Source of the DNA: Phycisphaerae bacterium
Lineage (GTDB): Bacteria; Planctomycetota; Phycisphaerae; SM23-33
Direction of reading: 5' to 3'
DNA length: 36,410 nt
Assembly: GCA_035686585.1 (NCBI GenBank)
Contig: DASRZG010000048.1
Coordinates: 1 to 36,410, forward strand
Shown in pieces: positions 1,231-19,827 of the stretch (position 1 is the first letter of the stretch; each line of letters starts with the position of its first letter). A program made the translations under genes and the position numbers. The notes beneath the pieces were generated by a model. It had not been told where the DNA came from. It saw nothing but the letters and a program-made list of their open reading frames with translations, and did not search any database.

Positions 1231-1325
1231 CTTGCTCTCCTTCCCTTTGGCTCCATCTGTGAAGAGATGATCGGTGGGCCCGTTCCCGGCCGCGAAGCAG
1301 GTCGAATGGGCCCCGGATAAGGCAC

Positions 1326-1346: not shown

Positions 1347-1402
1347 ATTCTATCCCGGAGTCCCTTTCCGTCAAGTCAGATCAACAGCGTAAGGCGGGCG
1401 GC

Positions 1403-2701
1403 TCAGCCCATCCACGCCAGCAGGTCTTTCTGGGCGTCCCACATTTCGTCGAACATGCGGCGGATCTTGTCGAGGGGCAGCACCGACGCGGTCAGCGGAT
1501 CGAGGGCGACGGCGTGGAAGGCGGCCTCGCGGTCCCTGTCCAGGGCCGCCCGGACGGCCAGCTCCTGCACGGAGACGTTGGAGCGGTTCAGCGCGGCGCA
1601 CTGGGCGGGCAGCTCGCCGACGTGGCAGGGATGGACCCCGGCCGCGTCGATCAGGCAGGGCACCTCCGCGCAGCACCCCTCGGGCAGGTTGGTGATCAGG
1701 CCGTGGTTCATCACGTTGCCGTGGATCCGCGCCGGGACGTTGGTGACCACGGCCTCGATGATGGCGGAGGTGTACTCGTTGGACCGGACCAGCGCGGGCA
1801 CCTCCGGATCGGCCTCGGCGTTGCCGGCGTCACGGGCCCAGGCCCGCCGGCGGGGCTCGGTGGCGGACACCTCGCGCGTGGGTAGGCCGAACTGCTCGCG
1901 CAGCTCGGGCGTGCGGCGGAAATAGGGCAGGTACTCCGAGTTGTGCCGCGTGCTCTCGGTGACGAAGTAGCCGAATTGCCTCATCATCTCGTACCGGACG
2001 GACTCCTTGCGGCGGAGCTCCTCGTCGGCTTCGAACGCCTTCCGGAGGAGCGGGTAGGCGTCCTCGCCGTCGCGGCGGAAGGCCAGCACCCACGCCTGGT
2101 GGTTGATCCCGGCCACGTGGTAGGTGATCTCGCCCGGCTCCAGCCCGGCCCAGCGCGCCATCTGGGCGGTGGTGCCCTGGACGGAATGGCACAGGCCGAC
2201 GTTGCGGACGGAGGAGGCGGCGTGGTGCAGCCAAGTCAGCATGGCCATGGGGTTGGTGTGGTTGAGCATCAGGGCGTCGGGGCAGAGGCGCTCGATGTCG
2301 CGGCAGAACTCCAACTGCACCGGCGCGGTCCGCAGGAAGCGGAACACCCCGCCCGGGCCGATCGTGTCGCCGACGGACTGGTCCACGCCGTAGGAGGCGG
2401 GGATGCGGATGTCGTACTCGTAGGGCTTGCCCCAATAGGCCGCCCCGCCGACCGACACGCTCGTCACGACGAAATCGGCGTCAACGAGCATCTCCGCCCG
2501 GTCGGTCGAGGCCACCAGCTTCGCCGGCAGGTTGTGGGCGTCCATGACGCGCTGGACGTACCGCGCCACGTCCTCAAGCCGCCCGGGGTCGATGTCGCAC
2601 AGGGCGATGGTCGAGTCCGCAAGCGGCTCGCGGCTGAGCACGTCGAGGGAAAGCCGGCTCCCGAACCCGCTGCCGGCGCCGATGATCACGATCTTGGCCA
2701 T
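1403..2701 (-). CDS. glycoside hydrolase family 4 (NAD+/Mn2+-dependent alpha-galactosidase/alpha-glucosidase type)
   Basis: The N-terminal Rossmann motif MAKIVIIGAGSGFGSRL and the GH4-type NVGLCHSVQG motif are both present. I prefer ATG 2701 (GGAG 8 nt upstream) over the track's TTG at 2719. Confidence 0.85.
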   Translation of the reverse strand: MAKIVIIGAGSGFGSRLSLDVLSREPLADSTIALCDIDPGRLEDVARYVQRVMDAHNLPAKLVASTDRAEMLVDADFVVTSVSVGGAAYWGKPYEYDIRIPASYGVDQSVGDTIGPGGVFRFLRTAPVQLEFCRDIERLCPDALMLNHTNPMAMLTWLHHAASSVRNVGLCHSVQGTTAQMARWAGLEPGEITYHVAGINHQAWVLAFRRDGEDAYPLLRKAFEADEELRRKESVRYEMMRQFGYFVTESTRHNSEYLPYFRRTPELREQFGLPTREVSATEPRRRAWARDAGNAEADPEVPALVRSNEYTSAIIEAVVTNVPARIHGNVMNHGLITNLPEGCCAEVPCLIDAAGVHPCHVGELPAQCAALNRSNVSVQELAVRAALDRDREAAFHAVALDPLTASVLPLDKIRRMFDEMWDAQKDLLAWMG

Positions 2702-2800
2702 GGGGGCGACTCCGAACAAGGCATCACGGCTTCATTGAACCATCTCGCCGGCGGCGCGCCCAGGGGGAACCCCGACGCCGTCTGTCCACCCCCGCCGCGG

Positions 2801-4207
2801 CTACCGCCCGATGCACCAGAGATGCTTCATGCCGCGGACGTACATCCGCCTGCCGACGAAAACGGGGCACGCGCGAAACTCTTCCAGCTTGTTGACGGCA
2901 AGCTGGCGGTACTCCCTGCCCGCCGCCAGCACCACCGTCGTGCCCAGCCGGTGGCTGACGTATACGTTCCCGCCCGCCAGCGTGACGCTGGCAAAGACCT
3001 GATCCTCGTCCTTGGGGTCGCCGCCCATCTCCAGCTTCTTCTCGTAGACGACCGTCCCGTCGGCGGCGTCCAGGACGCTCAGGACGCACCGGCGGGTGAC
3101 GGCGTAGATCAGCCCGTCGTGGATCAGCGGCGAGGCGTAGTAGCGGTCCTTGCGGATCGGCTTGCGCCAGAGGACCCTGGGGGCGAGCTCCTCGCCTCCC
3201 TCCTCCGGCAGTTGGATCGCGATGCAGTCGCTATCGCCGGCCCCGACGCTGTAGACCACCCGGCCCTCGGCCACCGGGGCGGCGAACTCGTGGTGGAACA
3301 TCTCGCGCGCCAGCGTCCTGCCGTCGGCGACCCGGATCGCGTCGCCGCCCGGGGAGACGAGCACGGCCGTCCCGCCGACGTTCACGGAAATGGGCGAGCC
3401 GAAGATGTCGTGCCACCGGGACTTCGTTCGCCACAGCTCCCGGCCGGTGGCGGCGTCCAGCCCCGTGGCGTCGACCACGTGCACGATCAGCTTGCCGTCG
3501 GCCAGCAGGGGCGAGTTGCTGTGGCCCGCCCAATCGTGGCGGGGCTTGTCGGTCATCGCGATCCACTTGCGGTTGCCGTCGAGGTCGTAGCAGGCCGTGG
3601 TGCCCAGGCCGGTGTGGACGTAGACGAACCTGCCGTCGCTGACCGGCGTGGGAGTGGAATAGCCCGTCAGCGCGCTGGCTTTGGGCGGGGCGTACTTCGT
3701 CAGCGGCTCCAGCTCCTCGGCCAGCGCGGCTGCCTCCTTCTTCAGGCGGTCGGCCTTGGCCTTGACGGCCGGGTCGTCCGGGGCCTTCTTCCACTCCCGG
3801 TCCGCCTCCGCGGACGCCTTGCGCGCGGCGTTGTATCTCTGCCGGATGGGCTTGGCCCTGGCCAGGTCCTCCTTGACCTTCGCGGCCTCCTCGGGCGAGA
3901 GGTACTGCTCGTAGCCGTTGGGCCTGCGCCACATGACCTCGCCGTCGGAGGCACGGACGCAGATCAGATCGGCCGGCTCGGAGCAGACGAAGATCCGCTC
4001 GCCCACCACGACCGGCGTGGCATTGGACCAGTCGGGCATGGGCGTCTTCCAGACGACGTTCTCCTGGGCCGACCACGTGATCGGCGGGTCGGCGTCGGGG
4101 TATCGGCCCGTCCCGTCCGTCCGCCAGCCCACGACCGGCTGGGCGTGCGCCCAGCAGGCCGCCGCCAGCACCATGCACACGGCCACCGCTGCGTTCGACC
4201 TTCCCAT
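2801..4207 (-). CDS. secreted PQQ-like (BamB-type) beta-propeller repeat protein with a charged helical insert
   Basis: The signal peptide MGRSNAAVAVCMVLAAACWAHAQ starts at ATG 4207; the track ORF starts at GTG 4246. Propeller blades recur with the pattern 'G.(I/V)(F/Y)V......L.(A/C).D..(T/D)G...W' (for example ERIFVCSEPADLICVRASDGEVMW, GRFVYVHTGLGTTACYDLDGNRKW, GKLIVHVVDATGLDAATGRELW, GLIYAVTRRCVLSVLDAADGTVVY). Confidence 0.7.
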   Translation of the reverse strand: MGRSNAAVAVCMVLAAACWAHAQPVVGWRTDGTGRYPDADPPITWSAQENVVWKTPMPDWSNATPVVVGERIFVCSEPADLICVRASDGEVMWRRPNGYEQYLSPEEAAKVKEDLARAKPIRQRYNAARKASAEADREWKKAPDDPAVKAKADRLKKEAAALAEELEPLTKYAPPKASALTGYSTPTPVSDGRFVYVHTGLGTTACYDLDGNRKWIAMTDKPRHDWAGHSNSPLLADGKLIVHVVDATGLDAATGRELWRTKSRWHDIFGSPISVNVGGTAVLVSPGGDAIRVADGRTLAREMFHHEFAAPVAEGRVVYSVGAGDSDCIAIQLPEEGGEELAPRVLWRKPIRKDRYYASPLIHDGLIYAVTRRCVLSVLDAADGTVVYEKKLEMGGDPKDEDQVFASVTLAGGNVYVSHRLGTTVVLAAGREYRQLAVNKLEEFRACPVFVGRRMYVRGMKHLWCIGR

Positions 4208-4286
4208 GGCGCGCCCTCTGTCACCAAGCCGTTCCTGACCGGCCACCTTATCCGCGGCCTCGTGCAGTTCAACCCCCGACGTGCCG

Positions 4287-4583
4287 TCATGTCCCGGCCG
4301 GCCTGCGTCCCAGGAACAGCCGCGCCGTTCCGCCCGCCAGCATCTCCGCCACCGCGCCGGCGAGGGGGGGAAAATCCTCCACCGAGTCCGCCAGGTACCT
4401 CTCGTCGGCCGCCGGGGATAGCGCCGCCACCGCCGCTTCCCGCCACCGCCGATCCAACCCCAGTGATATCAGGTGGTTCAGCCGGTCGTACCGCTCGGCG
4501 ATGCGGTCGAACATCCGCCGGCTCTCGGCCGCCGGGATCAACGCGTCGTCGCCTCGACTCTGTCCGGTCCCGTCCAATCGCAT
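4287..4583 (-). pseudogene. UbiE/MenG-like methyltransferase N-terminal fragment (the methyltransferase core is absent)
   Basis: [28 protein letters not shown] matches the conserved N-terminal box of UbiE/MenG (F..VA..YD.mN...S.G.h..WR). No SAM-binding (V/I)LD.(A/G)GTG motif follows, and the ORF stops only 40-80 nt before the next gene. The ATG is at 4583; the track ORF extends to TTG 4709. Confidence 0.3.
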
Positions 4584-4855
4584 CGCCGGAAACCGCCGGG
4601 CCGCAACCGGTTCGGCCAGGCGCGGCACACCCGCGCCCCACGCCCCCACCGGGGCGGCCACTTCAAATGGGCTCACCTGCTTACGATAATATTCCAGGAG
4701 GTCAGGCAATTTCTTGAAACATTCGAAGTAGTCGTGCGTCTACATTCGCATGGTTTCCTGCCGGTTGCCGCCGTCGCGAGTACCGTCGTATGCTCTGACA
4801 CCGCGCCGCCAGGCACATCGGGGCCTGCTCCGGTTCGCCGGCGGGTGGGGCCGCG

Positions 4856-4878
4856 CGGGAAAAAGGACCTTTTTCCCG
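4856..4878. promoter_or_regulatory. 23-nt perfect palindrome in the divergent intergenic region upstream of the giant gene
   Basis: cgggaaaaagg-a-cctttttcccg was read directly from the sequence. It sits in the ~500-bp lower-GC spacer between the minus-strand UbiE-like ORF and the plus-strand giant gene. No gene ends here, so an operator is more likely than a terminator. Confidence 0.3.
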
Positions 4879-5217
4879 GTTGTTAGTTGGCCGTTCTCGG
4901 TTTACCATATAAGCTTGGCAGGGGGGAACGGAGCCGGGGACCTCGGAGGGTCCCATGCAGTAGACGGACTGCAGTTTTGTGGAGAAACGTTATCGCTCAA
5001 GCACTTACATGGCTGCACGCCGGGCCGGGGGCTGGATAGCCCTCATCCTCTCTGTAAAGGTCTTCCCTGGCAGGCACACTTGAGAAACTTCACACCGTTC
5101 GCTCGAAACTGGAATGTCGCAACGTGGAGCCTGTAACAGCCGGGCGTGAACCCGGAGATTAGCAAGGCAAGTTCAGTTGTCGCTGAAGTCAAGCTAAACC
5201 CAAGTAGGAGGGGAACA

Positions 5218-8200
5218 ATGAGGTCCGACCCTAAAATGGAACACTCGACGAACATGGGCAGCACGGGGCCGCTGTTCGAATCGCTCGAGCAAAGGCTGAT
5301 GCTGACGACGCTGCAAGCGGGAGAGTGGTTCGTCTACAACGGGTCCCAGGACAAGTTCATCCTGGTGACCATGGCCGGCAACCCCGGCAGCAAGGCCGAA
5401 ATCCTCGCTCTGGACCACAAGACCGGGGACGTCAACCTCATGGACATATCGGGCATGATGGGCGGGCCGGGTTGGGGGCCCTCCCCCGTCTTCGGCGGCT
5501 TCAGCGGCCTGGGCAATCTGGACACCATTATCGGCTCCCCGCCGTACCTGGACCAGCAGATCGTTCTGGGTCTGGCGCGCCGCCCGGCCCAGCTGCCGGC
5601 CCAGGAACTGTACTCCTTCGACAACTTCCTGCACCAGCTGTGGGTGGTCGATGCGCTGAACGGCACGCGGGTGCCGGGGTCGAACAGGCTCATCACGGAC
5701 AGCCTCCAGCCATTCTACGGCTACACCATCGACGCGATGACGGTCAATGCGGCCGGCACCATCGTGGCGGCGGGCTTCCTGGTGGACCTGGACCCCATGA
5801 ATCTCCCTCCGCCGCCCGCGGTGGCCGGCCAGTACCTGATCAACATCGACTACGCCACGGGCATGGGCACGATCGTCGACCCGACGGCGCCTCTGGCCGT
5901 GCCCGGCGGGACCGGGCGCGTCACCGACATGGCCTACAGCGGCGGGCAGCTCTACGGCATCGACGGGGCCAACATCTTCACCATCACCGACACCACCGGC
6001 CAGATCGGGCCGCCGCAGACGCTGGTGGACGTGACCAACAACAACGCCCCCATCACCGGCGCCACCGGCCTGGAGTTCTTCAACGGGGCCCTGTACATCT
6101 GCGACGCCAACACGGTGTACACGGTCAATCCCGGCAACGGCAACTGCACGCCGCTGAACGGGAACCTCAGCCAACAGGACATGACCGACCTGGCCAGCGA
6201 CGGGACGGACCTCTACGGCGTGTTCAGCTCTAACGCCACGTCCATCCTGGCGCGGATCGAGACAAACCCGCCCGCCAACGTGGACCCCTTCGCCATCTAC
6301 ATCTCCCAAGCGGACATGACCACCAAGCTGACGTTCACCGAGGTGGGGCGCGTGACGATCAACCAGGTGGTCACGCCGGCGATCCCGCAAATGGTGCCGG
6401 TGGGCCAGGTGGACATCCAGTTGTACCAGGCGTCCCAGCCCCCGTTTATCAGCACCGGGGGTGCCCGGGCCCCGGCCGGCTCCGGCGGCGTGCTGATCGG
6501 CGGGCTTCACATACCCACCCAGGGCCTGCCCAACCGCCACGTGGCGACGGCCATCACCGGCCCGTATGGGGTGGCTACCCCGTTCACGCCGATCGGCGAG
6601 TTCCCGGGCGGCGTGCTTCACGCCGGCATCACGGTCGCCTGCCCCATGGCCACCATTATCGACGGCGACCTGGGACAGAGCGTCTCCGCCCTCGCCGCCG
6701 ACTCGGCGGGGACGTTCTACGCCGTGGACAACACCACCGGCAACCTGATCCAGATTCAGTACACCCCGGAGGTGCCCGCGTCCATCGGCTGGCCGGGCGA
6801 CCCGATGATCCCCCCAATCCCCAGCGCGCCCTGGTCGCCGGACGGCGGGGCCCCGACGATCACCGCCATGGGCGTGCTGACCGACGCCTCCCAGCCGGCA
6901 TGGACGTATGTGAACATCCAGGCGCTGGAGTTCGACGACACGGACACGCTGTACGCGATCGGCATGGTCGTCAGCTCCAACCCGGCCATTCCCGCGCCCA
7001 CCGGTCTGTGGCTGGTGACCATCGACCCGACCACGGGGCTGGTCACGCCGCTGGCCGAACTGGACCCGGAGGTCTCCAAGTACCACGGGATGGTCATCGA
7101 CGCCGGCGGAACCTTCACCGCCATCGGCACCTGGGTGGATCCGGTCACGGCCAAGCCCACCGACAACACGCTGGTGGGGATCGACCCGGTCACCGGGACG
7201 CTCACGCAGATCGGCGAGGTCACCTTCCAAGGCGCGTCCCTGGACCTGATCGAGGGCCTGGAGTACTTCGGCGCGAACCTCTACGCCACGACCGGAACCA
7301 TGCTGTACGTCCTCAGCGGGACCGCCGCCATCCCGTTGGCCGAAACCGGCCTGGACGAGCTGTCGGACCTGGCCGCCACCAGCGTCCTGGGCCCCCAGGG
7401 GCGCTTCCTGTGGTCGGTGACGTATGACGAGGGGTACAACCTGGTCAAGCTGGACCTGCTCCGGCCCGCGCAGGACATGGGCAAGCTGGCGGTGGCGGGG
7501 GTGATCGCCGGCGGCGTCCACGGCAGCGGCAGCATCGACGTCATCGAGACGGGCCTGCTCTGGGGCAACGTGGAGATCCCCTACGACCTGGGGCGCCTGG
7601 TCCTCCACACCGACTTCGCCGCCGGTACCGGGGTCCGCCCCGACAACGCCCTGGTGCGGGTCAACGGCACGCTCGGGGAGCTGGACGTCTACGGCAACTC
7701 GTACGGCAGCGTCTCGGTCGGAGGCAAAGCCAACATCCCCCACTCCGACTCGCACCTGTCGGACCTCAACGTGCCGGTCCCGAGGGACCCCCTCATATCC
7801 CTCGTCGACGTTCCCATCTGGTGGCCGGTTCGCGAGCTGGAGTGGAAACCCCCGGACACCGACCCGCTGCCCGAGACCCAGTGGACCGACTACGCCAACC
7901 TGATGACGGTCGTCAACGACACGCCGGACGACTTCCAGTTCATCTCCAACGAGTTCGGCGAGATCGCCGTCTGGGGCGACCTGGCCGGCCCGGGCAACCA
8001 CAACGACGTCGAGGACTGGTGGGCCATCAGCCTGATGTCCGGGCAGACCGTCCGGATCGACGCCGTCGGCGCGTTAGGCGTCTGGACCGATCCGATCACC
8101 GGGATCTCCGACTCCCCCGGCTGGGTCACCGACCCGCTCGACGCGGCCCCGTTCATGTACAATGGCTTCGCCCTGGATGTCTTTGACGGGACGCTCAACT

Positions 8201-11200
8201 ACCTGGCCTCGGTCGGCTACGAGACCATCGAGGACCACGGGCTCCAGAGCAGGGTCACGTGGCCGTACACGACCGGGTACCAAAGGCACCAGGAGCCGCT
8301 GACCTTCACCGCGCCGGAGGCGGGCATCTACTACGTGCGCGTCTGTGCGAGTACGGCAATCCTTTGGACGGACTTCTGTTACACGCTCTTCATGGATGAC
8401 CTGACCGCGCGGGACAAGCCGGAAGATGACCTGACCACCGCCCTGGGAAAGGCCAACGCCGCCTCCCTGGGCGCCATCCACACGCTGGGCGACTATGATC
8501 CCAGCTACGGCGGCACGGGAACGCGCACCAACATGGACATCGAGGTGACCGGCGGCAGCTTCGGGGCCTTTGAGGTCGCGGGCATTGCCGGCCCCAACGG
8601 GCTCTTCGCGCGCGTCTACGGCCAGGGCAACATGGTCAGCTTCCGGGGCGGTATAATCGACCTGACCCTCCTGCAGGTCGACAACAACATCGGCCTGGTG
8701 GCCTCCACGGCCGGCGGCGCGGGGATAACCGCCGTTGCCGGCGCCGGCTTCGCTGTGGTCAACACCGACGCGTTCATCCAGAACTTCAACTCCGCCGCCG
8801 ACACGTCCGTCGGCCTGTACGCCACGGGCGGCCTGGGCGTGGTCGACGTCGTCGGCTCGGTCTTCAGCGGCAGCGAGTTCGCCATCAACACCGACAACAT
8901 CACCGACCACACGGTCTACTGCGACCTGATCCACGTGGGCGGGGACTGGGGCACCGCGCCCCTAGGATCGAATCCGTACCTGACGCACGGGGAGAATGCC
9001 GACTTCCGGTACGTGGACGTCGAAGGGGACATCTATGTCCGGTGGGGCTCCTACATCGGCCTCATGTCGCCCACGCAGGTCGACGACGGCACGATCTCGA
9101 CGATCGAGGACGACGGCGGCGGACGGGTGGTGCTGACGCCGGGGGCGCAGATCGACCCGGCGACGGGCCTGCCGATGACCGTCACCGACCCGGTCACCGG
9201 CGCGGTGACTCCCGTCCTGACCAGCTACCAGTATTACGTGCTGCCCGTCCAGGGCACCACCGGCGGCGTGCTGTGCCGGGTGGAGGCCACCGGCGATTTC
9301 ACCCTCTCGATCCCCGGCGCCGGCGACGTGGTCGACGTCGTCCACGTCAATCACATGGGCAACGGCCAGTTGAACCTGGGCGGCGTGGGAACCGTCAACG
9401 CCTATTTCGTGGAAGGCACCGGCACCACCAGCGTGATCAACGGGACCAAGGGCGACATCGTCTCCGGCCTGTTCGACACGATCGACACCATCCAGACCGG
9501 CGGCAACATCGGCCGGGCCGTCGGCGACGTCGGGGAGTGGATCCGAGGGCGCGAGCCCACCGCCCCGGCGCCCAATAACCCCCAGATGGGCTGGCTGAAC
9601 CGCACCATCGACGGCATCCACGTCACCGGCGACGTCAACGTCGTCCGCGCCGGCGGCTGGCTGGGCGACGTGTTCGTGGAGGGTCACCTCGACCTGGCCG
9701 TCGCCAACGCGGACAACGTCACCGCGCCCGACTCCTGGGACGGCGTGATCGGCGTCATCGAGGCCGACACCATCGGCACGATCCGCGTCGGCGACGGGCT
9801 CGCCGACGACGGCTCCGGCGACCGGGCCATGGCCGCCATCATCGGCCGGACCAGCATCGACTCCGTCCTCATCGACGGGGCGGGGCACGTCCTGAACGGC
9901 GCCATCCTGACCGGCGGCGCCAACCCCCTGCCGATCGGCACGCCCGCGATCGGCCGGGTCATCGGCACCAACGGCGCCGTCTGCACCTCGCTGATCATGG
10001 CCTGCGACGTCGAGACGTACCAGGTGTACCGCAGCGGCGTGTATCCGTTCACCGGCGGGATCGGCGTCGTCCGGTTCAGCGGCCCCGGGGGGGCCATCCG
10101 GGGTGCGGAGATCGCCGGCCAGTGGATCGACACGGTGGAGACCACCGTCGAGACCGAGGGCATCGACACGTCCTTCATCTCCGCGAACCTGCCGCTTCCG
10201 AACCGCCCGGCCATCACGCAGATCCTGGCCGGCGGCCCGGGCATGCACCGGTCCGTCCTGAGCACCAACGGCGGCCGGTTCGGCGCGATCCGAGGCATCG
10301 GGCCCAATGCCGACCTCACCATCAACTACATCCGGTCCACCGACGGGCTGGACGAGCTCAAGGCCCGCGACATCGTCCAGAACACCATCTTGATCCCGCT
10401 GCAGATCGACCGGTTCATCGCCACGCGGGAGATCGTCGGCAACTACAACGTGTACGTGGGCTCCATCGGCACCCTGTCCACCGGCGCGGACTTCGCGGGC
10501 AACTACTTCAGCATCGCCGCCAACCTGAACCGGGCGGTCATCGGCGGGCACTACGACCACTCCGTGCTGGATCTGCAGGGCCCGACCACCACGCAACTGG
10601 GCGTGCTGGACGTGATGGGCAACATCTCCGGGGAGATCCGGTCCACCGGGCGGATCGGACAGATCATCTCCCGGATGGGCATGATCTCCGCAAACATCAC
10701 CACAATGGACGACGCCGTCCAGGCGGACATCGGTTCGATCACGACCCGCAACGGGTTCACCGGCGAGTTGAGGGTCGAGGGCAGCGTGGGCCGGTTCACC
10801 AGCTACGCGACGCTGGGGACGAACCCGATGCTGCTTCCGGACATGGTCCCGCTGCAGTTCAAGATCGCCGTCGACCTGGACGTGCTGGAGGTGAAGGGCG
10901 TCAAGAACGGCCCGGCCTTGGACCTGTTCACCTCCCTGTATGTCGGCGGCAACGTCGGCAAGATCGACATCGACGGGTCGTTGTACGCGGACGTGCAGGT
11001 CAACGGCAACCTCGGACGCCTGGTCCTCGACGGGGACATGGGCGGCCAGTTCGTGCTCGTGGCGCCGACGATCCTGGGCGACGTGACGGTCCTCGGAACC
11101 ATCGGCGGCCTGTCCCTCGTCGACGGCGCCAACCTGGTCGGCGACCTGACCTCCGGCGGGTCGATCGGCAAGATCAAGCTGACCGACAAGGCCGCGAACC

Positions 11201-14200
11201 CCGCCAGGGGCAACATCCTCGGCGTCATCCGGTCGCTCCACGGATCGATCGGGTCGGTCACGCTGACCAACGGTGTCCTGGGCGGCCTGGAAGCCGCCAC
11301 CAGCATCGGCAAGGTCATCCTCAAGGGCACCGCGGGCGACCCGGCCGCCATCACCGGCGACCTCATCGCCAACGGCGGCGGGATCGGATCCCTGACGATC
11401 GTCAACGGCAACCTGGACGCTAACGTCCGCGCCCTGGCGGGCGCGATCGGCAAGCTGTCCATCACCGGCGGCAACGTGGTCGCGGGCAACGTCGTCTACT
11501 CGTCCCGCGGGATCGGCTCGCTGGCGATCAAGGGCGGCAACCTCGACGCCGACGTGACGACCGACGGCAGCCTGATGAAGTTCTCGGTGGCCGGCGACGT
11601 CAACGGGCAGGTGTCCGCGGCCGGCAAGGTCGAGAACGTCAGCATCCTGGGCGACCTGAACGGCGGCCTGTGGGCCGGGACGGGCATCAAGAGCGTCAAC
11701 ATCCGCGGCCACATGACCGGCGCGACGATCGGCAGCATGTTCGACATGGACCGGATCAGCGTGTCCGGGAACGTCACGAACTCGCAGATCATCGGCGGGT
11801 ACGACCCGGCCACCGGCAAGGTCCGCGGCGCCGACCTGAAGACCCTCAGCGTCGGCGGCAACTGGACGGCGTCGGTGGTGGCCCTGGGCGTCGACCCGGT
11901 CGACGGCAGCTTCTTCACGCTGGGCGACAACGTCGCGGCCCCGGGCGTCAGCAGCCTGGGCGTGATGAGCGTCGGGGGCATCGCCAGCCCGGCGGGCAGC
12001 CTGATCCTGGCGGACACCTGCTTCGGCGTGGTGCCCGTCCCGCTGCTGGGCGTGGCGTCGACCGTGGACGGCCCGACGCCGCCCCTCAGCGCCGACCCCG
12101 CCCACCGCTTCCAGGCGGGCCGGTACGTCGCCGCCGACGGGCTGATCATCACCTACAACGGCAACGGGCAGGGCAGCTACGATCCCGCCACCGGGCAGGT
12201 CGTCCTGCAGGGCGCCGGCGCGGGGCACAGCCTGACGCTGGACATGCCCGGCGCCGCCAAGACCATCCACGTCACCGGCGACGACGACCTGGGCCTGAGC
12301 AGCCTGACGTTCCGCAACAACGCGATCACCGGCGATATGACCATCCAGGGCGACATCGGCAAGTTCGCCACGGGCGCCGTGGCCGACGGGTCCCACTGGC
12401 AGCTCTGGGACGGGGCCAAGTCCGTCGCCACCGGCGGCCTGAACGGCGTGGACGTGGTGGCCGGGGCCATCGGATCGTGGAAGCTGGCGGGCAACTTCGA
12501 TCGCCTCGCGGGCGACGAGGGCCTGACGGCCTACATGATCGGCAAGATGGACATCGCCGGCAACCTGACCGCCTCGATCGCCACGATCATCAACGGCATC
12601 GGATCGCTGAACGTTCGCGGCAACATCACCGGCGGCAAGATGGCCCTGGGCGAAGAGCAGATCGTCACCGCCGGGGGCATCGGCAGGCTGTCGGCCAACT
12701 CCATCATCGCCGACCCCAGCGCCGGCCAGGCGGTCCTGTCCGTCAACCCCGCCACCGGCGGGATCCACGTCCTGTCCGGCGACCTGGGCTCGCTGACCAG
12801 CAACGGCGACGTCAACGCCAACATCACCGTCGACAACGGCGGCATCGGCCAGTTCAGCATTCGCAACGGCACCTACGGCAACATGGTCACGGACACGGCC
12901 GTTCGAAGCCTGACCGGCATCGGCCGGTTCAACGTCCGCGGCGGCAACCTGTACGGCATCGTCAGCACCGACGGGCCGCTGGGCAGCCTGAGCGTATCCG
13001 ACAAGGGGCAAGGCACGCTGTTCGGGCGTGTCCGGGCGGGCGACGGCATCGGTTCGGCCCAGATGGACCTGATGATCAACGCCTTGCTGTCCTCGGCCAC
13101 CGACGTTGGGCGCGTCAGCATCCGCGGCGACATGACCAGCAGCACCATCGTCGCCGGGATCGACCCGTCCGACGCCGGCTTCGACCCCGCCCACGGCGTC
13201 GAGGCGGCGAACGTCCAGTTTGACGGGCGCACCACGCTCCCCTGGCGGACCCCTCTGAACACCGACATCCTCGGCGGCGGCGACGTCAACCAGGTCAACA
13301 TCGGCGGCAACATGATCGCCTCCGCCATCTCCGCCGGCGTGGGCGCCGGGGCCAACGGCTGGTTCGGCACCTGGGACGATCAGGTCCGCGGCACGGGCCT
13401 GGTCAAGCGGGTCAAGGTCAGGGGCTCGATCACCGGAACGGTAGACCCCACCGAGCACTACGGCCTCTTCGCCGCCAGCGGCATGCCGGTCTACACGGCC
13501 AACCCGACGACCGTCACGGGCAACGTCACCATCGGCACCCAGTCCCGAGGCGTGGGAAGCCCGCAGATCAACAACGTGCAGGTGCTGACCGACCGGATCG
13601 TCATCTACTTCGCGCACGACATCGACTTCGGCACGATCACCACCGGCTTGCTGCATCCGAGCCGGCCGTCCACCCTGAACCTGGTGGTCTCCCACAACAG
13701 CCTGTTCGGGCCCACCGAGTCCGACGATTTCAGCATCACCGATCTCCAGCCGCATGCGCTCAGCTATGACGACCTGACCCACACGCTGACGATCCGACTG
13801 CTGGGCAAGACCTTCGTGAGCCTCAACAAGGGCACCAATTACCTGCTGACCCTGGACGGCTCGGTGGTGAGCGACCGCCGCGGCAACCTGGTGGACGGCG
13901 AGTACAACACCGCGTTCCCGACCGGCGACGGCATGGCCGGAGGCGACTTCCTCTACCGGTTCATCCACGGCGACGCCGGAGACACGGCCGCCACGGCCAT
14001 CGACCTCACCGGCGGCGTGCCGATCCTGAAGCCCAACAAGGTCCTGGACCTCCGCGGCAGGATCGGCGACAACGACCCCCGGCCCGCCAATTCCGACGTG
14101 GACGTGTACAGCGTCGAGGTCCACATGGGCGACATCCTGTACTACGAGACCTCGTGGGGCATTGCCCTCGACGACGGAGGCGGCGGCATCCTCGTGACGT

Positions 14201-15429
14201 CCCTGAGCACCATGGGGCATCGGGCCACCGCCGACGGCGTGGTGATGATCAGCGTCAGCGGCAGCCCCGGCCCCTACACCCTGAGCGTGTTGGTCTTCAA
14301 CGACGGCAACACCAACTTCACCTTCGACGACGCCACCCAGACCGCCACGCCGGTGATCTGGAAGGGCGACACAGCGGTGCTGGGCCCCAACGACAAGCCC
14401 GAGGACGCCATCACGGCCGACATCATCGCCCCGGACGACTACGACATCTACGAATTGGGGTTCCTGCCGGCCTTCACCGAGATCCATCTGGGCCTGGACA
14501 CCAGGCGCATCGGCAGCCCGATGGAGGGCAAGATGGCCGTGTTCAATTCCAACGGCGACATGATCGGGAACATCACCTCGCCGTACTACGACCTGGAAGG
14601 CCACTTCCCCGACGGCAAGCTCGACCCCTCCGTCACCCTTCGGCAGACCGCGCTGACGCCCGCGGCCGACACGTACTACGTCGCCATCGCGGGCGGGTGG
14701 CACCAAGCAGGCAGCTTCCAGCAGACAGACCAGGGCAAGTACCGCCTGACGATCACCCAGTCGCAGGGTCAGGCCCCGGTGTTCCGGCACCAGTTGGTCT
14801 ACCTCAACTTCGACGGCGGCGTGGCCGAGTACCTGATCGACGCCTTCGGCGCCACGTATGCGGGAATCCCCACGGAGACCTACCAGTCGCCGCTGTCGGC
14901 GGATCTCTTCGGCTATGACGCCGCCCAGACCCAGGAGCTGATCAACGGCATCGTCGCGACCGTCGAGGAAAACTACGCCGCCTTCGGCAACATCTCCTTC
15001 ACCACCGTCAAGCCCATGGGCGGGCAGTACTCCACCGTCTTCGTCGGCAGCAACCTGTCGCCGGACGGAATGACGGGCGGGATCGCCGACGGCATCAACA
15101 CCAACAACAGCGACCTGAGCGACATGGTCGTGGTGTTCGGCGCCGAATTTGCCTGGGCCTTCGGGCAGCCCTTCGGCAACACCCTCGACGAGGTGGCCGT
15201 GGTCCTCGGCAACGTGGCCTCGCATGAGCTCGGCCATATCCTCGGGCTGAACCACGTCAACAACAGCACGACCTTGCCCGACACCTGGATCATGAGCTAC
15301 GCACACCTGCCGCACATGAACACCGATGACATGGTCTTCACCACGCACGAGCACTTGATGTCCGACGCCAACGTGGAATTCCTGATCGGCTACCAGAACA
15401 GCGTCGCCTCGCTGTGGTCCATCGCGTAG
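5218..15429 (+). CDS. giant (~3,403 aa) extracellular modular protein: N-terminal LExRxxL box, propeller-like repeats, PPC-type domains, long beta-helix-like repeat array, Ig-like domain, C-terminal metzincin metalloprotease module
   Basis: A single open frame runs 5146..15429. I prefer ATG 5218 because AGGAGG (5206-5211) lies 6 nt upstream. The zinc motif HELGHILGLNH is at 15223..15255, with a Met-turn-like WIMSY downstream. PPC-like signatures are DVEDWWAISLMSGQTVRID...AGIYYVRV, DVDVYSVEVHMGDILYYE and DYDIYELGFLP...ADTYYVAIAG. About 30 G-x-IG-x-L-x-I-x-G-N/D-L units can be seen. A hairpin terminator follows the stop. Confidence 0.9.
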   Translation: MRSDPKMEHSTNMGSTGPLFESLEQRLMLTTLQAGEWFVYNGSQDKFILVTMAGNPGSKAEILALDHKTGDVNLMDISGMMGGPGWGPSPVFGGFSGLGNLDTIIGSPPYLDQQIVLGLARRPAQLPAQELYSFDNFLHQLWVVDALNGTRVPGSNRLITDSLQPFYGYTIDAMTVNAAGTIVAAGFLVDLDPMNLPPPPAVAGQYLINIDYATGMGTIVDPTAPLAVPGGTGRVTDMAYSGGQLYGIDGANIFTITDTTGQIGPPQTLVDVTNNNAPITGATGLEFFNGALYICDANTVYTVNPGNGNCTPLNGNLSQQDMTDLASDGTDLYGVFSSNATSILARIETNPPANVDPFAIYISQADMTTKLTFTEVGRVTINQVVTPAIPQMVPVGQVDIQLYQASQPPFISTGGARAPAGSGGVLIGGLHIPTQGLPNRHVATAITGPYGVATPFTPIGEFPGGVLHAGITVACPMATIIDGDLGQSVSALAADSAGTFYAVDNTTGNLIQIQYTPEVPASIGWPGDPMIPPIPSAPWSPDGGAPTITAMGVLTDASQPAWTYVNIQALEFDDTDTLYAIGMVVSSNPAIPAPTGLWLVTIDPTTGLVTPLAELDPEVSKYHGMVIDAGGTFTAIGTWVDPVTAKPTDNTLVGIDPVTGTLTQIGEVTFQGASLDLIEGLEYFGANLYATTGTMLYVLSGTAAIPLAETGLDELSDLAATSVLGPQGRFLWSVTYDEGYNLVKLDLLRPAQDMGKLAVAGVIAGGVHGSGSIDVIETGLLWGNVEIPYDLGRLVLHTDFAAGTGVRPDNALVRVNGTLGELDVYGNSYGSVSVGGKANIPHSDSHLSDLNVPVPRDPLISLVDVPIWWPVRELEWKPPDTDPLPETQWTDYANLMTVVNDTPDDFQFISNEFGEIAVWGDLAGPGNHNDVEDWWAISLMSGQTVRIDAVGALGVWTDPITGISDSPGWVTDPLDAAPFMYNGFALDVFDGTLNYLASVGYETIEDHGLQSRVTWPYTTGYQRHQEPLTFTAPEAGIYYVRVCASTAILWTDFCYTLFMDDLTARDKPEDDLTTALGKANAASLGAIHTLGDYDPSYGGTGTRTNMDIEVTGGSFGAFEVAGIAGPNGLFARVYGQGNMVSFRGGIIDLTLLQVDNNIGLVASTAGGAGITAVAGAGFAVVNTDAFIQNFNSAADTSVGLYATGGLGVVDVVGSVFSGSEFAINTDNITDHTVYCDLIHVGGDWGTAPLGSNPYLTHGENADFRYVDVEGDIYVRWGSYIGLMSPTQVDDGTISTIEDDGGGRVVLTPGAQIDPATGLPMTVTDPVTGAVTPVLTSYQYYVLPVQGTTGGVLCRVEATGDFTLSIPGAGDVVDVVHVNHMGNGQLNLGGVGTVNAYFVEGTGTTSVINGTKGDIVSGLFDTIDTIQTGGNIGRAVGDVGEWIRGREPTAPAPNNPQMGWLNRTIDGIHVTGDVNVVRAGGWLGDVFVEGHLDLAVANADNVTAPDSWDGVIGVIEADTIGTIRVGDGLADDGSGDRAMAAIIGRTSIDSVLIDGAGHVLNGAILTGGANPLPIGTPAIGRVIGTNGAVCTSLIMACDVETYQVYRSGVYPFTGGIGVVRFSGPGGAIRGAEIAGQWIDTVETTVETEGIDTSFISANLPLPNRPAITQILAGGPGMHRSVLSTNGGRFGAIRGIGPNADLTINYIRSTDGLDELKARDIVQNTILIPLQIDRFIATREIVGNYNVYVGSIGTLSTGADFAGNYFSIAANLNRAVIGGHYDHSVLDLQGPTTTQLGVLDVMGNISGEIRSTGRIGQIISRMGMISANITTMDDAVQADIGSITTRNGFTGELRVEGSVGRFTSYATLGTNPMLLPDMVPLQFKIAVDLDVLEVKGVKNGPALDLFTSLYVGGNVGKIDIDGSLYADVQVNGNLGRLVLDGDMGGQFVLVAPTILGDVTVLGTIGGLSLVDGANLVGDLTSGGSIGKIKLTDKAANPARGNILGVIRSLHGSIGSVTLTNGVLGGLEAATSIGKVILKGTAGDPAAITGDLIANGGGIGSLTIVNGNLDANVRALAGAIGKLSITGGNVVAGNVVYSSRGIGSLAIKGGNLDADVTTDGSLMKFSVAGDVNGQVSAAGKVENVSILGDLNGGLWAGTGIKSVNIRGHMTGATIGSMFDMDRISVSGNVTNSQIIGGYDPATGKVRGADLKTLSVGGNWTASVVALGVDPVDGSFFTLGDNVAAPGVSSLGVMSVGGIASPAGSLILADTCFGVVPVPLLGVASTVDGPTPPLSADPAHRFQAGRYVAADGLIITYNGNGQGSYDPATGQVVLQGAGAGHSLTLDMPGAAKTIHVTGDDDLGLSSLTFRNNAITGDMTIQGDIGKFATGAVADGSHWQLWDGAKSVATGGLNGVDVVAGAIGSWKLAGNFDRLAGDEGLTAYMIGKMDIAGNLTASIATIINGIGSLNVRGNITGGKMALGEEQIVTAGGIGRLSANSIIADPSAGQAVLSVNPATGGIHVLSGDLGSLTSNGDVNANITVDNGGIGQFSIRNGTYGNMVTDTAVRSLTGIGRFNVRGGNLYGIVSTDGPLGSLSVSDKGQGTLFGRVRAGDGIGSAQMDLMINALLSSATDVGRVSIRGDMTSSTIVAGIDPSDAGFDPAHGVEAANVQFDGRTTLPWRTPLNTDILGGGDVNQVNIGGNMIASAISAGVGAGANGWFGTWDDQVRGTGLVKRVKVRGSITGTVDPTEHYGLFAASGMPVYTANPTTVTGNVTIGTQSRGVGSPQINNVQVLTDRIVIYFAHDIDFGTITTGLLHPSRPSTLNLVVSHNSLFGPTESDDFSITDLQPHALSYDDLTHTLTIRLLGKTFVSLNKGTNYLLTLDGSVVSDRRGNLVDGEYNTAFPTGDGMAGGDFLYRFIHGDAGDTAATAIDLTGGVPILKPNKVLDLRGRIGDNDPRPANSDVDVYSVEVHMGDILYYETSWGIALDDGGGGILVTSLSTMGHRATADGVVMISVSGSPGPYTLSVLVFNDGNTNFTFDDATQTATPVIWKGDTAVLGPNDKPEDAITADIIAPDDYDIYELGFLPAFTEIHLGLDTRRIGSPMEGKMAVFNSNGDMIGNITSPYYDLEGHFPDGKLDPSVTLRQTALTPAADTYYVAIAGGWHQAGSFQQTDQGKYRLTITQSQGQAPVFRHQLVYLNFDGGVAEYLIDAFGATYAGIPTETYQSPLSADLFGYDAAQTQELINGIVATVEENYAAFGNISFTTVKPMGGQYSTVFVGSNLSPDGMTGGIADGINTNNSDLSDMVVVFGAEFAWAFGQPFGNTLDEVAVVLGNVASHELGHILGLNHVNNSTTLPDTWIMSYAHLPHMNTDDMVFTTHEHLMSDANVEFLIGYQNSVASLWSIA

Positions 15430-15456
15430 CCGACACGACGGCCGGCAGGATTTGAG

Positions 15457-15495
15457 ACGGCCCGGGCGCCTTCGCAAAGGAGGCGCCCGGGCCGT
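15457..15495 (+). terminator. intrinsic-terminator-like hairpin after the giant gene
   Basis: acggcccgggcgcc (15457-15470) pairs perfectly with ggcgcccgggccgt (15482-15495), giving a 14-bp stem and 11-nt loop. It is followed by tcgctttc, a weak T-run, and lies 28 nt after the stop codon. Confidence 0.6.
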
Positions 15496-15639
15496 TCGCT
15501 TTCACCCCGACGGGACAGGGGTGGCTGCGGCGCCCCCGGAAGGCTCCCTCCCCCGCCACGTGCCCGCCCAAGACGCTGGCAAACCTCCCCCGCCTGCGCG
15601 ATGATGCTCCATCCAGGCAACGGACAACAGGAGCGCCGC

Positions 15640-18183: not shown

Positions 18184-18895
18184 CCACCCGGGACGTCCCA
18201 TCCCGCTTCCCGACGACCGCCGCCAGCAGGGCGGCGACCAGGCCGACGGCGGGCCAGGCGAGCCAGGACCACCCCGGGCCGGGCAGCCAGGTGGCGGACG
18301 GCCGGGCCAGGCGGAACGCCCGCAGCACGGGGCTCAGGTCGGCCAGCCACGCCCAGCCGGGCGGGGAGTCGGCCAGCTCGGCTAGAAGATAGCAGGCGGC
18401 GGTCGTTCCGACCACCCCGATCACCGCGGCCAGCGCGGCCACACAGGCGGCGGCCCCGCCGGCCTGGAACAGCAGCCCCAGCCCCCACGCCGCCAGGGCG
18501 ACAGTGGTCAGGTGGGCCACCGACCGGATCACGTCGCCCGCGGCCGCATTGGACAGCCAGGCGGCGGTCACGTACAGGGGGACGGAGGCGACGAGCACCA
18601 GGGCGTACTCCCCGATCGTCTCGGCGAGGTACCGCCACAGCGCCCGGCCCGCCCTCGGCGCCAGCAACAGCGGGCAGAAGGCCAGGACGAACCCCGCCTG
18701 TGCGGCCAGCAGGACCGACAGCGCCGGCGGGGCGGGCATGGCCCGGCTGACGTGGGAGGGCAGGAACCACTCGGGGAACGACCCGGCGATCAGCGCCGCC
18801 AGGGACACCAGCAGCAGCGCCCAGTCCGCGCCCCGCCACAGCGGCGCAGGCCTGGCCGGCACGGCGTCCGGGTCATCTCTCGGGGTAGGTGACAT
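18158..18895 (-). CDS. polytopic membrane protein of unknown function (about 6 predicted TM helices), the last gene of the dcw operon
   Basis: Hydrophobic stretches include WALLLVSLAALIAGSF, LSVLLAAQAGFVLAFCPLLLA, YALVLVASVPLYVTAAWL, TTVALAAWGLGLLF, ACVAALAAVIGVVGTTAACYLLA and WLAWPAVGLVAALLAAVV. ATG 18895 overlaps the ftsQ-like stop (18873) by 23 nt, which suggests translational coupling. I recognised no family motif. Confidence 0.6.
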   Translation of the reverse strand: MSPTPRDDPDAVPARPAPLWRGADWALLLVSLAALIAGSFPEWFLPSHVSRAMPAPPALSVLLAAQAGFVLAFCPLLLAPRAGRALWRYLAETIGEYALVLVASVPLYVTAAWLSNAAAGDVIRSVAHLTTVALAAWGLGLLFQAGGAAACVAALAAVIGVVGTTAACYLLAELADSPPGWAWLADLSPVLRAFRLARPSATWLPGPGWSWLAWPAVGLVAALLAAVVGKRDGTSRVAPSSRRLA

Positions 18896-19820
18896 GGAGC
18901 TCGTCGAAGCGGAGGTCCAGGCTCGCGGCGGACGGGCCCGTCAGCCGCCGCCCGTTCTGCTGGTAGTACTGGTCGAGGTAGGCCATCCTCCGCTCGAGGC
19001 TGACGGCATAGTCGTCGCCGACGGGCAGCCGGCCGAAGATGATCTCGCACTTCGGCCCCCACCCCATCTGGGCGTCCACGGTGATCTCCGGCTTCCGCGG
19101 ATCCCTCCTGCCGTCGTGGTTCTGCACGTCGATGACGGTGATCTCGTCGACGTAGGGCTTGCTCCAGAACAGTTTGAGCACCTTCAGCCCGTCGGCGAGG
19201 TCGGAGGCCTCCCACACCTGGCCCGCGGCCGGGGGCTCCCCGGCGACGTTGTGGATCTGCTTGAAGGCCGCCACGTCCAGCAGGACGCCGTCGATCGTCG
19301 GCAGGACCACGCCGTCGATCGTGACGGGAATGAGCTGCATCGCCGGCTTGGCGGAGGAGCGAACGAGCGCCCGCGGCCTGTGGTACTGGGCATACACGGC
19401 CACGTCGCCGGTGGGACCCCGCACCACCCGGTCGACCTGGGCGATCCAGGGGTTGGCCGTCGCCTTAGCCCACACGTCGCGGGCGATGCCCTCCTCGAAG
19501 ACCGAGCGGGGATTGCCTTTGCCATCGAAACCGGCCGGCTGAATCTCGGAGGTGATCACGTACGTCAGCTCCCGCGGCATCCAGTCCGGCCTGTTGGCCA
19601 GCCGGATCCGCGCCAGGCGTTCCCGGCACGCCGGCGAGGCGTGAAGCCGGGCCTTCTGGCCGTACAGGGCGGCGAGCAGGGCGATTCCGATCGCGCCCGC
19701 CACGGCCGCTCGGACGATCCTCAGCGACAGCCCCCGCCCGTTCGAATCCGTCGAGCGGCGCCTGGGAGGCTTCTCGGGCGTCTGGGGCTCTTTGCCGTTT
19801 TTGGAGGTCTTCCTGGCCAC
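18873..19820 (-). CDS. ftsQ: FtsQ-like bitopic cell-division protein (assigned by position and architecture)
   Basis: It lies immediately downstream of ddl, the canonical ftsQ position. It has a basic N-tail (MARKTSKNGKEPQTPEKPPRRR), a single TM helix (IVRAAVAGAIGIALLAALYG) and a ~250-aa extracytoplasmic domain. The start is GTG. I could not verify a diagnostic sequence motif by eye. Confidence 0.5.
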   Translation of the reverse strand: MARKTSKNGKEPQTPEKPPRRRSTDSNGRGLSLRIVRAAVAGAIGIALLAALYGQKARLHASPACRERLARIRLANRPDWMPRELTYVITSEIQPAGFDGKGNPRSVFEEGIARDVWAKATANPWIAQVDRVVRGPTGDVAVYAQYHRPRALVRSSAKPAMQLIPVTIDGVVLPTIDGVLLDVAAFKQIHNVAGEPPAAGQVWEASDLADGLKVLKLFWSKPYVDEITVIDVQNHDGRRDPRKPEITVDAQMGWGPKCEIIFGRLPVGDDYAVSLERRMAYLDQYYQQNGRRLTGPSAASLDLRFDELHVTYPER

Positions 19821-19827
19821 GTCCGTG

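Follow-up and report, generated by a model that had tools for sequence, protein, structure and literature searches.

A giant planctomycete protein with a LEPR-XLL-type N-terminal motif and a predicted C-terminal metzincin domain

The Planctomycetota are rich in giant proteins carrying an N-terminal motif of the LEPR-XLL type. The consensus sequence of the motif, RRLxxExLExRxLLA (PF07595; Studholme et al., 2004), has been described as a putative planctomycete-specific export signal (PMC8567305). In Tuwongella immobilis it is found on eight of the ten longest proteins, and eight of the 20 detected motif carriers were present solely in the sodium dodecyl sulfate-soluble fraction S3, a common site of outer-membrane proteins (PMC8567305). 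It is already recognised that giants of this type can carry a variety of adhesive or enzymatic domains, such as the trypsin domains of examples from T. immobilis (PMC8567305). Here, a gene for a protein of this kind is described from a 36,410-nt stretch of DNA of a Phycisphaerae bacterium (contig DASRZG010000048.1, positions 1 to 36,410, hereafter the window). Its product, referred to as the giant protein, is placed by sequence comparison within a conserved unnamed "LEPR-XLL ... metzincin" family of uncultured Planctomycetota. The best explanation for it, which is held with moderate confidence, is that of an exported giant surface protein, or one released from the surface, with a metzincin located far from its N-terminus.

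The motif that links the giant protein to this class lies close to its start (aa, amino acids):

5272–5310, + strand (aa 19–31): LEPR-XLL-type N-terminal motif LFESLEQRLMLTT, from a match to NF012209 and conservation in homologues

An earlier reading of the DNA, made from the sequence only, had noted an N-terminal LExRxxL box. This box is present, and is probably the known planctomycete LEPR-XLL/PF07595 motif. Against NF012209 ("LEPR-XLL domain-containing protein") it scored 13.3 bits at aa 19–29 (cut-off 17, E 0.048), its core reading LEQRLML with a Gln where LEPR-XLL has a Pro. Six relatives scored 11.8–16.6 bits against the same model, several of them with the canonical LEPRxLLTT, and the motif was found at the equivalent position in every homologue examined. 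No match to PF07595 was detected for the giant protein in the Pfam scan, even at E ≤10. The giant protein has no hydrophobic N-terminal segment, with the top 12-residue hydropathy in its first 60 aa being 0.97. It is suspected that LFESLEQRLMLTT represents an export or sorting signal of the planctomycete type, and this assignment is putative.

Other sorting elements were also considered. A motif search showed LPXTG to be absent from the giant protein, and anchoring by PEP-CTERM or LPXTG was ruled out, the defining feature being absent in each case. The C-terminal EFLIGYQN...IA tail was rejected as a sorting signal. The same element, (F/I)P(I/L)G.Q(D/N)...LL, ends stand-alone proteases of ~400 aa, and the tail therefore belongs to the catalytic domain.

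The gene and its conserved family

The gene and its immediate signals were located as follows:

5218–15429, + strand: coding sequence of the giant protein, one open frame from ATG 5218 to TAG 15427–15429
5206–5211, + strand: Shine-Dalgarno sequence AGGAGG with a 6-nt spacer to ATG 5218, read from the sequence
15453–15498, + strand: GC-rich stem-loop 3' of the stop codon, from fold energy and pair list

The sequence-only reading had described one uninterrupted frame with a good Shine-Dalgarno sequence, followed by a 14-bp hairpin. The frame and the ribosome-binding signal were confirmed, with 3,403 codons and a GC content at the third codon position (GC3) of 0.94. A hairpin is also present but exceeds the length given, with 20 predicted base pairs that include an unbroken run of 16, and a weak U-tract follows it. 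The 96 nt of positions 15425–15520 fold at −54.2 kcal/mol (z = −4.48), with none of 200 shuffled sequences as stable, and the stem-loop is a probable terminator or RNA-stabilising hairpin. The coding sequence is the longest open reading frame (ORF) in the window, which is ~70% GC, and its GC content by codon position (0.61/0.47/0.94) follows the same pattern as in all convincing genes of the window. The deduced protein has a mass of 353 kDa, a pI of 4.3 and ten Cys (0.3%), with no classical signal peptide and no transmembrane-like segment in its first 60 residues.

Searches with a word-indexed method, in which three pieces of the protein served as separate queries, returned a handful of partial metagenome fragments of ~60–77% identity. 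The nearest matches came from Planctomycetota metagenome-assembled genomes (MAGs) and marine sediment (P0001, JGI sample; P0002, marine sediment; P0003 and P0004, Planctomycetota MAG). P0003 begins at the same Met and shares M..DPK..GS.GP.FE.LE.RLMLTT with the giant protein. When the C-terminal 654 residues were used as the query of an exhaustive HMMER search, 450 proteins were detected at E < 1e-3, 16 of them at E < 1e-30. Among these, P0009–P0019 range from 2,104 to 4,082 aa, all but one exceeding 3,000 aa, and were found to be collinear with the giant protein nearly end to end at 31–42% identity. A protein of 3,377 aa, encoded on the 37-kb metagenome contig L014, aligned to aa 1–3403 in one high-scoring segment pair at 41% identity. 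The full-length members examined open with a hydrophilic/basic stretch followed by (F/L)E.LE.R.LLTT, and all of them except P0014 end with ...FLIGYQN... and about seven further residues. It should also be noted that single-protein query scans of genome and metagenome contigs found no relative, the relatives there being found by alignment-based scans.

The named members of the family are all annotated as "hypothetical protein" and all belong to the Planctomycetota. Among GTDB representative genomes, giant ORFs with a metzincin end were found in Sedimentisphaerales, Phycisphaerales/Phycisphaeraceae, Pirellulales and an unclassified Planctomycetota MAG. The family thus has at least 16 representatives at E < 1e-30 across Phycisphaerae and Pirellulales MAGs and is conserved end to end. 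It is already present, unnamed, in public databases, and giant LEPR-XLL surface proteins are a recognised class. The check for orthologues in related genomes that had been proposed with the sequence-only reading therefore gave a positive result, with L014 aligning end to end and at least ten other giants of 3,000–4,100 aa collinear, which share the N-terminal motif and the C-terminal metzincin. The giant ORF is judged to be real and intact. As L014 covers aa 1–3403 and the other giants are collinear with it, the ORF is not chimeric, nor is it an isolated fusion.

The gene contains no DNA self-repeats of more than 20 nt and no notable tandem repeats. BLAST of the protein in chunks gave internal matches of ≤35% identity, and self-BLAST of the undivided protein returned the identity match alone. 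Repeat-driven misassembly is therefore unlikely. A broader doubt, that the ORF arose through faulty assembly or belongs to a gene in decay and does not yield one polypeptide, is considered very improbable. It draws on the interrupted genes of three relatives, with three frame switches in L016 and breaks corresponding to aa ~2495–2552 in L001 and L002, and on doubt over the assembly quality of the window. Against it stand 10.2 kb of uninterrupted frame at 70% GC with the same GC3 throughout, the start-to-stop collinearity with independently assembled homologues, the lack of misleading internal DNA repeats, and P0003, in which start site and N-terminal motif are both conserved.

The interrupted relatives were inspected individually. 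Positions 3582–11857 of contig L016 are syntenic with window 1–15429. Its GH4 glycosidase gene is 90% identical to window 1403–2719, with the orthologue of the giant protein showing 44% identity over aa 14–1416 and 59–63% over aa 1505–2776. By this comparison the giant gene evolves far faster than its GH4 neighbour. Of the three frame switches of the L016 giant gene, near ~7940, ~8120 and ~10750, the junctions of the first two were read. Neither is in a homopolymer, and one of them is a ~60-nt deletion, about one repeat unit. Either decay of the gene in this population or assembly errors in the contig could account for the switches. In the metagenome relatives L001 (~2468–2470) and L002 (2152–2258), both ~60% identical to the giant gene, the frame is lost at the same site of the stalk described below, equivalent to window ~12700–12870. 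In L002 a stop is followed by ~56 nt of lower-GC, non-homologous sequence and a new ATG (MKLGFVSAILPDIHV...), and in L001 one 37-aa repeat unit is missing, out of frame. The frame runs on without a break here in L014 and the other full-length giants. The site could represent an indel hotspot, a genuine division of the gene in two or a fault of assembly.

Propeller-like, stalk and immunoglobulin-like modules

Between the N-terminal motif and the C-terminal protease, the following modules were delimited:

5515–6267, + strand (aa ~100–350): propeller-like module 1, from hhalign, with ~55-aa repeats
6268–6672, + strand (aa 351–485): non-repeat insert between the propeller-like modules, conserved in the family alignment
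6673–7482, + strand (aa ~486–755): propeller-like module 2, from hhalign, with ~55-aa repeats
7483–7902, + strand (aa 756–895): first solenoid-type repeats, hhalign 97% and 90% against later stalk segments, and repeat model at aa 755–836
7915–8352, + strand (aa ~900–1045): PPC-like module 1, from a sub-threshold Pfam PPC match and hhalign
8515–13488, + strand (aa ~1100–2757): long Gly-rich region of degenerate repeats, from the repeat model and hhalign
13561–13950, + strand (aa 2782–2911): Big_5-like immunoglobulin-like (Ig-like) module ending in DGEYNTAFPTGDGMAGGDF, from a sub-threshold Pfam Big_5 match
13969–14298, + strand (aa 2918–3027): PPC-like module 2, hhalign against module 3 at 95.4%, E 1.8e-8
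14299–14763, + strand (aa 3028–3182): PPC-like module 3, from hhalign; pairs with the protease in the wider family

The sequence-only reading had proposed seven modules in an unusual order. All of the modules are present in the order given, mostly on profile support. The order itself is shared across the family, and is in that sense not unusual; no characterised protein with the same combination was found in Pfam, NCBIfam, the PDB sequences or a literature search, and the literature search also found no published description of the architecture or of the family.

Roughly at 5320–7480, propeller-like repeats had been proposed. The recurring LY(A/G)(I/V)...ID..TG pattern is real, with instances confirmed in the N-terminal region, and the stretch now resolves into two homologous modules of ~250 aa and an insert. 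A family alignment of six sequences supplied the orthologous columns from which profiles for hhalign were made, and these showed modules 1 and 2 to be homologous (99.9%, E 5e-34). Both modules matched themselves at a shift of ~55 residues at ~96–97% (module 1, 96.9%). A shift of ~110 residues was clear only in module 2 (88–93%), with module 1 giving 8–26% (weak, 25.7%). The 135-aa insert showed no similarity to either module by hhalign. No match to Tachylectin or DUF6923 was detected in the giant protein itself by the Pfam scan. The N-terminal repeat region of homologues matched DUF6923 in P0017 (58.6 bits), P0007 (37 bits) and P0006 (31.4 bits), and Tachylectin in P0017 (38.5 bits) and P0016 (36.8 bits), scores which attain the Pfam thresholds. 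BLAST collinearity placed the repeat-region matches of P0006 and P0017 (Tachylectin) roughly opposite propeller-like module 2. A profile search of the PDB with the propeller region gave one weak match (2p4o, E = 0.08), and an AlphaFold model of aa 1–1050, built like the model below from an alignment of 2–3 sequences, had a mean predicted local distance difference test (pLDDT) score of ~32–33. Tachylectin-2 is a five-bladed propeller lectin of ~230 residues, and the best reading of aa 100–350 and 486–755 would be that of two five-bladed, lectin-like propellers.

The propellers are followed by repeats of another kind. An iterated repeat hidden Markov model detected 28 degenerate units of ~21 residues (G.IG.L.I.G.L) within aa 479–2736, with 27 of the 28 located in aa 755–2736. 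By hhalign, the segments aa 756–895, 1100–1500, 1790–2250 and 2340–2757 are mutually homologous with shifts of register. A Foldseek search of the PDB with an AlphaFold model covering part of the stalk gave nothing below E = 0.4, with the top neighbour being the MpAFP beta-helix (3p4g). Foldseek and profile searches of the stalk returned, all at sub-significant level, the MpAFP beta-helix, tailspikes, bactofilin, plant leucine-rich repeat proteins and phage J, of which the first four are solenoids. The model of aa 2516–3403 had a mean pLDDT of ~32–33, its best part being an all-beta stretch at aa 2516–2645 (pLDDT ~70–78). Of the ~1,600 aa of beta-helix-like repeats proposed earlier, the degenerate Gly-rich repeats are thus present, with the predicted fold carried by profile self-similarity. 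It is suspected that aa ~1100–2757 represent a beta-solenoid stalk. The ~1,800 residues of repeats, at ~21 residues and 4.8 Å per coil, would then span ~40 nm.

PPC domains (PF04151) are classically pre-peptidase modules which are removed during maturation, and the three PPC-type domains proposed in the sequence-only reading were all recovered as PPC-like modules. Module 1 scored 22.1 bits against PF04151 at aa 932–1042 (cut-off 25.9), with homologues scoring 18.5–20.9 bits at this position. Modules 2 and 3 have no Pfam match of their own, their assignment coming from the hhalign link between them and from that of module 1 to module 3 (96.6%; controls against the Ig-like module gave 0.0–0.2%). 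The equivalent of module 3 in relatives had a PPC match in four of 60 sequences, with P0040 reaching 42 bits. The proposed Ig-like module with a terminal DGEYN..FPTGDG.AGGDF box was likewise recovered as a Big_5-like module. Big_5 (PF13205) matched aa 2782–2902 at 22.1 bits (cut-off 23.6, E 2.7e-4) over profile positions 12–105 of 105, and the box DGEYNTAFPTGDGMAGGDF is at aa 2893–2911 and is conserved in P0001 and P0002.

The metzincin domain and its possible role

The C-terminal end of the giant protein contains the following features:

14791–15426, + strand (aa ~3192–3403): metzincin catalytic domain, from a Peptidase_M10 match and alignment
15223–15255, + strand (aa 3336–3346): zinc motif HELGHILGLNH, the sole HExxH in the giant protein
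15286–15300, + strand (aa 3357–3361): Met-turn WIMSY, aligning with the Met-turn of the matrix metalloproteinases (MMPs)
15376–15426, + strand: family-typical C-terminal EFLIGYQNSVASLWSIA, from the alignment of relatives

A metzincin at the extreme C-terminus had been proposed, and the zinc motif, the Met-turn and the Pfam result agree with this. Peptidase_M10 (PF00413) was the best Pfam model, with 20.3 bits for the whole protein (cut-off 24) and 25.1 bits for the isolated domain, the match covering profile positions 89–137 of 159 only. An alignment of the C-terminus with 59 relatives was constructed, and all 60 of its sequences matched Peptidase_M10. Zinc-site columns H271, E272, H275, G278 and H281 are invariant in this alignment and the Met M289 nearly so; HExxHxxGxxH and the Met-turn are kept in nearly all family members. 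Comparison of the family profile with MMP, karilysin and fragilysin gave matches to the zinc helix and Met-turn only (~23–50 residues, E 5e-7 to 4e-5). The Cys-switch PRCGxPD is absent from the giant protein, which has no Cys after aa 2268, and the pLDDT over the domain was 20–30. The catalytic motifs are intact, and the protease is predicted to be active. It is best regarded as a metzincin with a matrixin-like zinc helix, and is not to be classed as an M10A matrixin.

The pairing of a PPC-like module with the metzincin is also found in hundreds of stand-alone proteins of ~350–450 aa, which gives the cassette the look of a secreted enzyme unit that is sufficient by itself. Among the 59 aligned relatives, the consensus shows an N-terminal GC which resembles the lipobox of lipoproteins. 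In P0011, three extra Golvesin_C matches were found after the protease.

These observations lead to the following model of an exported giant protease. The LEPR-XLL-type motif, with the role given to it in the literature, would direct the acidic 353-kDa polypeptide out of the cytoplasm by a presumed planctomycete pathway, one that may serve most of the giant envelope proteins of planctomycetes. The two Tachylectin/DUF6923-like propellers near the N-terminus would bind a ligand, probably a glycan. The Gly-rich repeats, which are interrupted once by a PPC-like module, would form a solenoid spacer tens of nanometres long. At the distal end, the Big_5 Ig-like module and two PPC-like modules would be followed by the metzincin, which is predicted to cleave proteins at a distance from the N-terminus. 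Most likely this would serve to digest proteinaceous polymers or other surfaces in sediment for uptake of the products, with the substrate presumed, as is tethering to the cell. In a more specific form the protein would be a cell-attached proteolytic appendage of a type not recognised before, with the LEPR-XLL N-terminus as anchor, the lectin-like propellers at the base, a solenoid arm of ~40 nm and the metzincin at its tip for digestion of particulate protein, or of the surfaces of other cells, at a distance. In this specific form the proposal is considered unlikely.

A number of points weigh against an exported giant protease. Pfam and NCBIfam matches in the giant protein itself are all below or barely at the cut-off, and the structural models are of low confidence, with no significant structural neighbour at the Foldseek level given above. 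Autocorrelation of hydrophobic residues and Gly in the stalk showed weak periodicity (z ≤3.9), so that profile self-similarity, not a clean period, underlies the solenoid assignment. Export, anchoring, orientation and activity are all predicted from sequence. No linked secretion, anchoring or immunity partner was found at the loci compared, the neighbours being metabolic or unrelated. The P0014 cluster (P0014/P0157/P0158; 4,068 aa) carries HELAHVLGLQN, with Asn for the third zinc-ligand His, and P0156, of the P0012 cluster, carries HQLGH, with Gln for the catalytic Glu, so that the distal end of the family is not uniformly catalytic. The giant gene is also frame-broken in the three close relatives described above. 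In view of these substitutions and broken frames, the protease, or the whole gene, may be dispensable.

The same substitutions, which suggest that catalysis is not always essential, favour a role mainly as an adhesin or structural envelope fibre, in which the metzincin would act in cis or on neighbouring envelope proteins in maturation, shedding or release. The three PPC-like modules fit such a role, the lectin-like propellers and the Big_5 Ig-like module would suit adhesion, and the peptidase domains of giant proteins of the Omnitrophota have been proposed to cleave the giant itself (bioRxiv 10.1101/2023.11.21.568195). However, the hundreds of stand-alone cassette proteins, some with the lipoprotein-like GC, argue for free-standing hydrolysis, and a cleavage motif or autoprocessing site was not identified in the giant protein. 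This alternative is regarded as rather unlikely.

With a recognisable enzymatic output, the metzincin, and a binding input, the lectin-like propellers, the protein would be among the few giants of its class that are open to a concrete biochemical test. Should the protease indeed be displayed far from the cell, this would be relevant to the access of sediment planctomycetes to particulate protein; should it not be displayed far out, the protein would be a well-documented but ordinary member of the giant surface proteins of planctomycetes. If the appendage form is true, the end-to-end conservation of the family together with its fast evolution could offer a tractable handle on the export and anchoring machinery of LEPR-XLL proteins.

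Genomic neighbourhood and comparison with known systems

Upstream of the giant gene, on the opposite strand, are genes for a GH4 glycosidase, a PQQ/BamB-like propeller protein and a methyltransferase remnant; downstream are a gene for a GH94 phosphorylase and then a division/cell-wall cluster. The close relative L016 shares the upstream GH4 and methyltransferase genes. None of the neighbours in the window recurs at distant family loci, where the downstream genes all differ and include those for HEAT-repeat, PAS/response-regulator and YdbH-like proteins.

This neighbourhood bears on the suggestion that the giant protein serves as a weapon, whether polymorphic-toxin-like or related to predation, with its C-terminal metallopeptidase as a toxic or lytic effector that would be delivered to other cells on contact. 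Tox-MPTase1-5 and some PVC-metallopeptidase domains are found at the C-terminus of long repeat proteins, including those of planctomycetes (Zhang et al., 2012; PMC3482391), and in the Omnitrophota, a PVC relative, giants with hydrolase and peptidase domains have been implicated in predation (bioRxiv 10.1101/2023.11.21.568195). The fast evolution of the giant gene relative to GH4 could also be taken in favour of it, but would be equally expected of any exposed surface protein. The C-terminal domain is constant across the family and not polymorphic, the Pfam scan was negative for RHS and filamentous-haemagglutinin repeats as well as for HINT and any other releasing peptidase, and the downstream genes differ between loci (GH94 here) with none being immunity-like. 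A weapon is consequently held to be improbable. A polymorphic toxin was rejected, as all members have the same C-terminal domain, the downstream genes are unrelated and RHS, FilH and HINT matches are lacking. Of the tethered or contact-dependent machine suggested by the sequence-only reading, the stalk and distal protease fit the anatomy, but contact-dependent action is not favoured, given the constant C-terminal domain and the lack of a conserved downstream immunity-like gene.

Some further observations were made within the window. The UbiE-like methyltransferase ORF (4287–4709, − strand) is a remnant of 140 aa, with matches to two distinct regions of the 226-aa gene that is intact in L016. 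Between it and GH4 lies the PQQ/BamB-like beta-propeller gene (2801–4246, − strand), which has no counterpart in L016, and 2801–4709 has the appearance of having been rearranged locally around the divergent promoters. An intergenic region of ~500 bp (4710–5217) separates the remnant from the divergently transcribed giant gene and contains two terminator-like hairpins on the + strand (4856–4878 and 4956–4973). The sole sigma-70-like match, at 4662–4690, is located just upstream of this region, within the methyltransferase remnant ORF.

The ORF at 2–1344 (− strand), which runs off the left edge of the window, encodes a signal peptide, a domain of ~230 aa of unknown function and then repeats of the GGTGNWS..NW type. 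The ~230-aa domain was also found in two tandem L014 proteins (700–1533 and 1997–2830) just upstream of the giant gene there, with a PEP-CTERM signal visible in the translation of one and a PF07589 match of 29.4 bits in the other. It recurs upstream in L016 (38% identity), and these proteins may be a loosely linked family of exported partners.

On the other side of the giant gene, 18873–35035 (− strand) carries mraZ, mraW, a gene for a LysM protein, ftsI, murE, murF, mraY (25911–27332), ftsW, murG, murC, murB and ddl. The LysM protein occupies the expected place of ftsL, and murD is absent between mraY and ftsW. After ddl there are two ORFs without Pfam support (one with a sub-threshold ABC2_membrane match) and then GH94, with no ftsA/ftsZ there. 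This arrangement is consistent with a planctomycete without FtsZ.

A number of described systems resemble the giant protein in part. With the matrixins (M10: MMPs and karilysin) and fragilysin it shares the aligned HExxHxxGxxH zinc helix and Met-turn. It differs from the matrixins by its lack of a Cys-switch, and the rest of its ~210-aa domain matches the unnamed family only. The Tyr that follows the Met-turn (IMSY) is as in the astacins and serralysins.

The SPATE/IgA1-protease autotransporters (Hbp, EspP, IgA1P) carry a protease on an elongated solenoid which projects from the cell surface. The giant protein is similar to these type Va proteins in its protease at the end of a stalk, with the beta-helix being conjectural here. 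It differs from them in that its protease is C-terminal, giving the opposite polarity, and a metzincin instead of a serine protease, with a stalk that would be about four times longer. A type V autotransporter was rejected as an identity for the giant protein, as there is no N-terminal Sec signal peptide, no C-terminal beta-barrel translocator and no autotransporter Pfam match.

In the M26 proteases the catalytic domain lies toward the C-terminus, with cell attachment near the N-terminus. The streptococcal M26 IgA1 proteases, ZmpB and ZmpC are large zinc metalloproteases with accessory beta-rich domains (PMC7695701, PMC9637739). They are gluzincin-like, unlike the metzincin described here, and have a Gram-positive LPXTG anchor, which the giant protein lacks. 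A search of PDB sequences showed no similarity of the giant protein to solved M26 structures.

The Marinomonas MpIBP RTX adhesin (PMC3492233) and the Omnitrophota giants (bioRxiv 10.1101/2023.11.21.568195) have been described as extracellular fibres of great length, with modules for ligand binding, hydrolysis or both. The giant protein resembles these in its long multi-module design with binding and/or hydrolytic modules, although its fibre is a prediction. It lacks the tandem near-identical Ig repeats of the giant RTX adhesins. A type I-secreted RTX adhesin was also rejected, with no GG.G.D (GGxGxD nonapeptide) and no type I secretion signal in the giant protein. Compared with the archaeovorin- and dockerin-type giants of the Omnitrophota, it is much smaller and is without transmembrane or SecA-like regions.

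The LEPR-XLL/PF07595 giants are a class defined by the motif alone, and no described member has the order propeller-PPC-solenoid-Big_5-PPC-PPC-metzincin. The giant protein is nevertheless like them in its phylum and giant size, in having a motif, here of sub-threshold score, within the first ~30 residues after a hydrophilic/basic stretch, in being without a classical signal peptide, and in its acidic, Cys-poor, multi-domain body.

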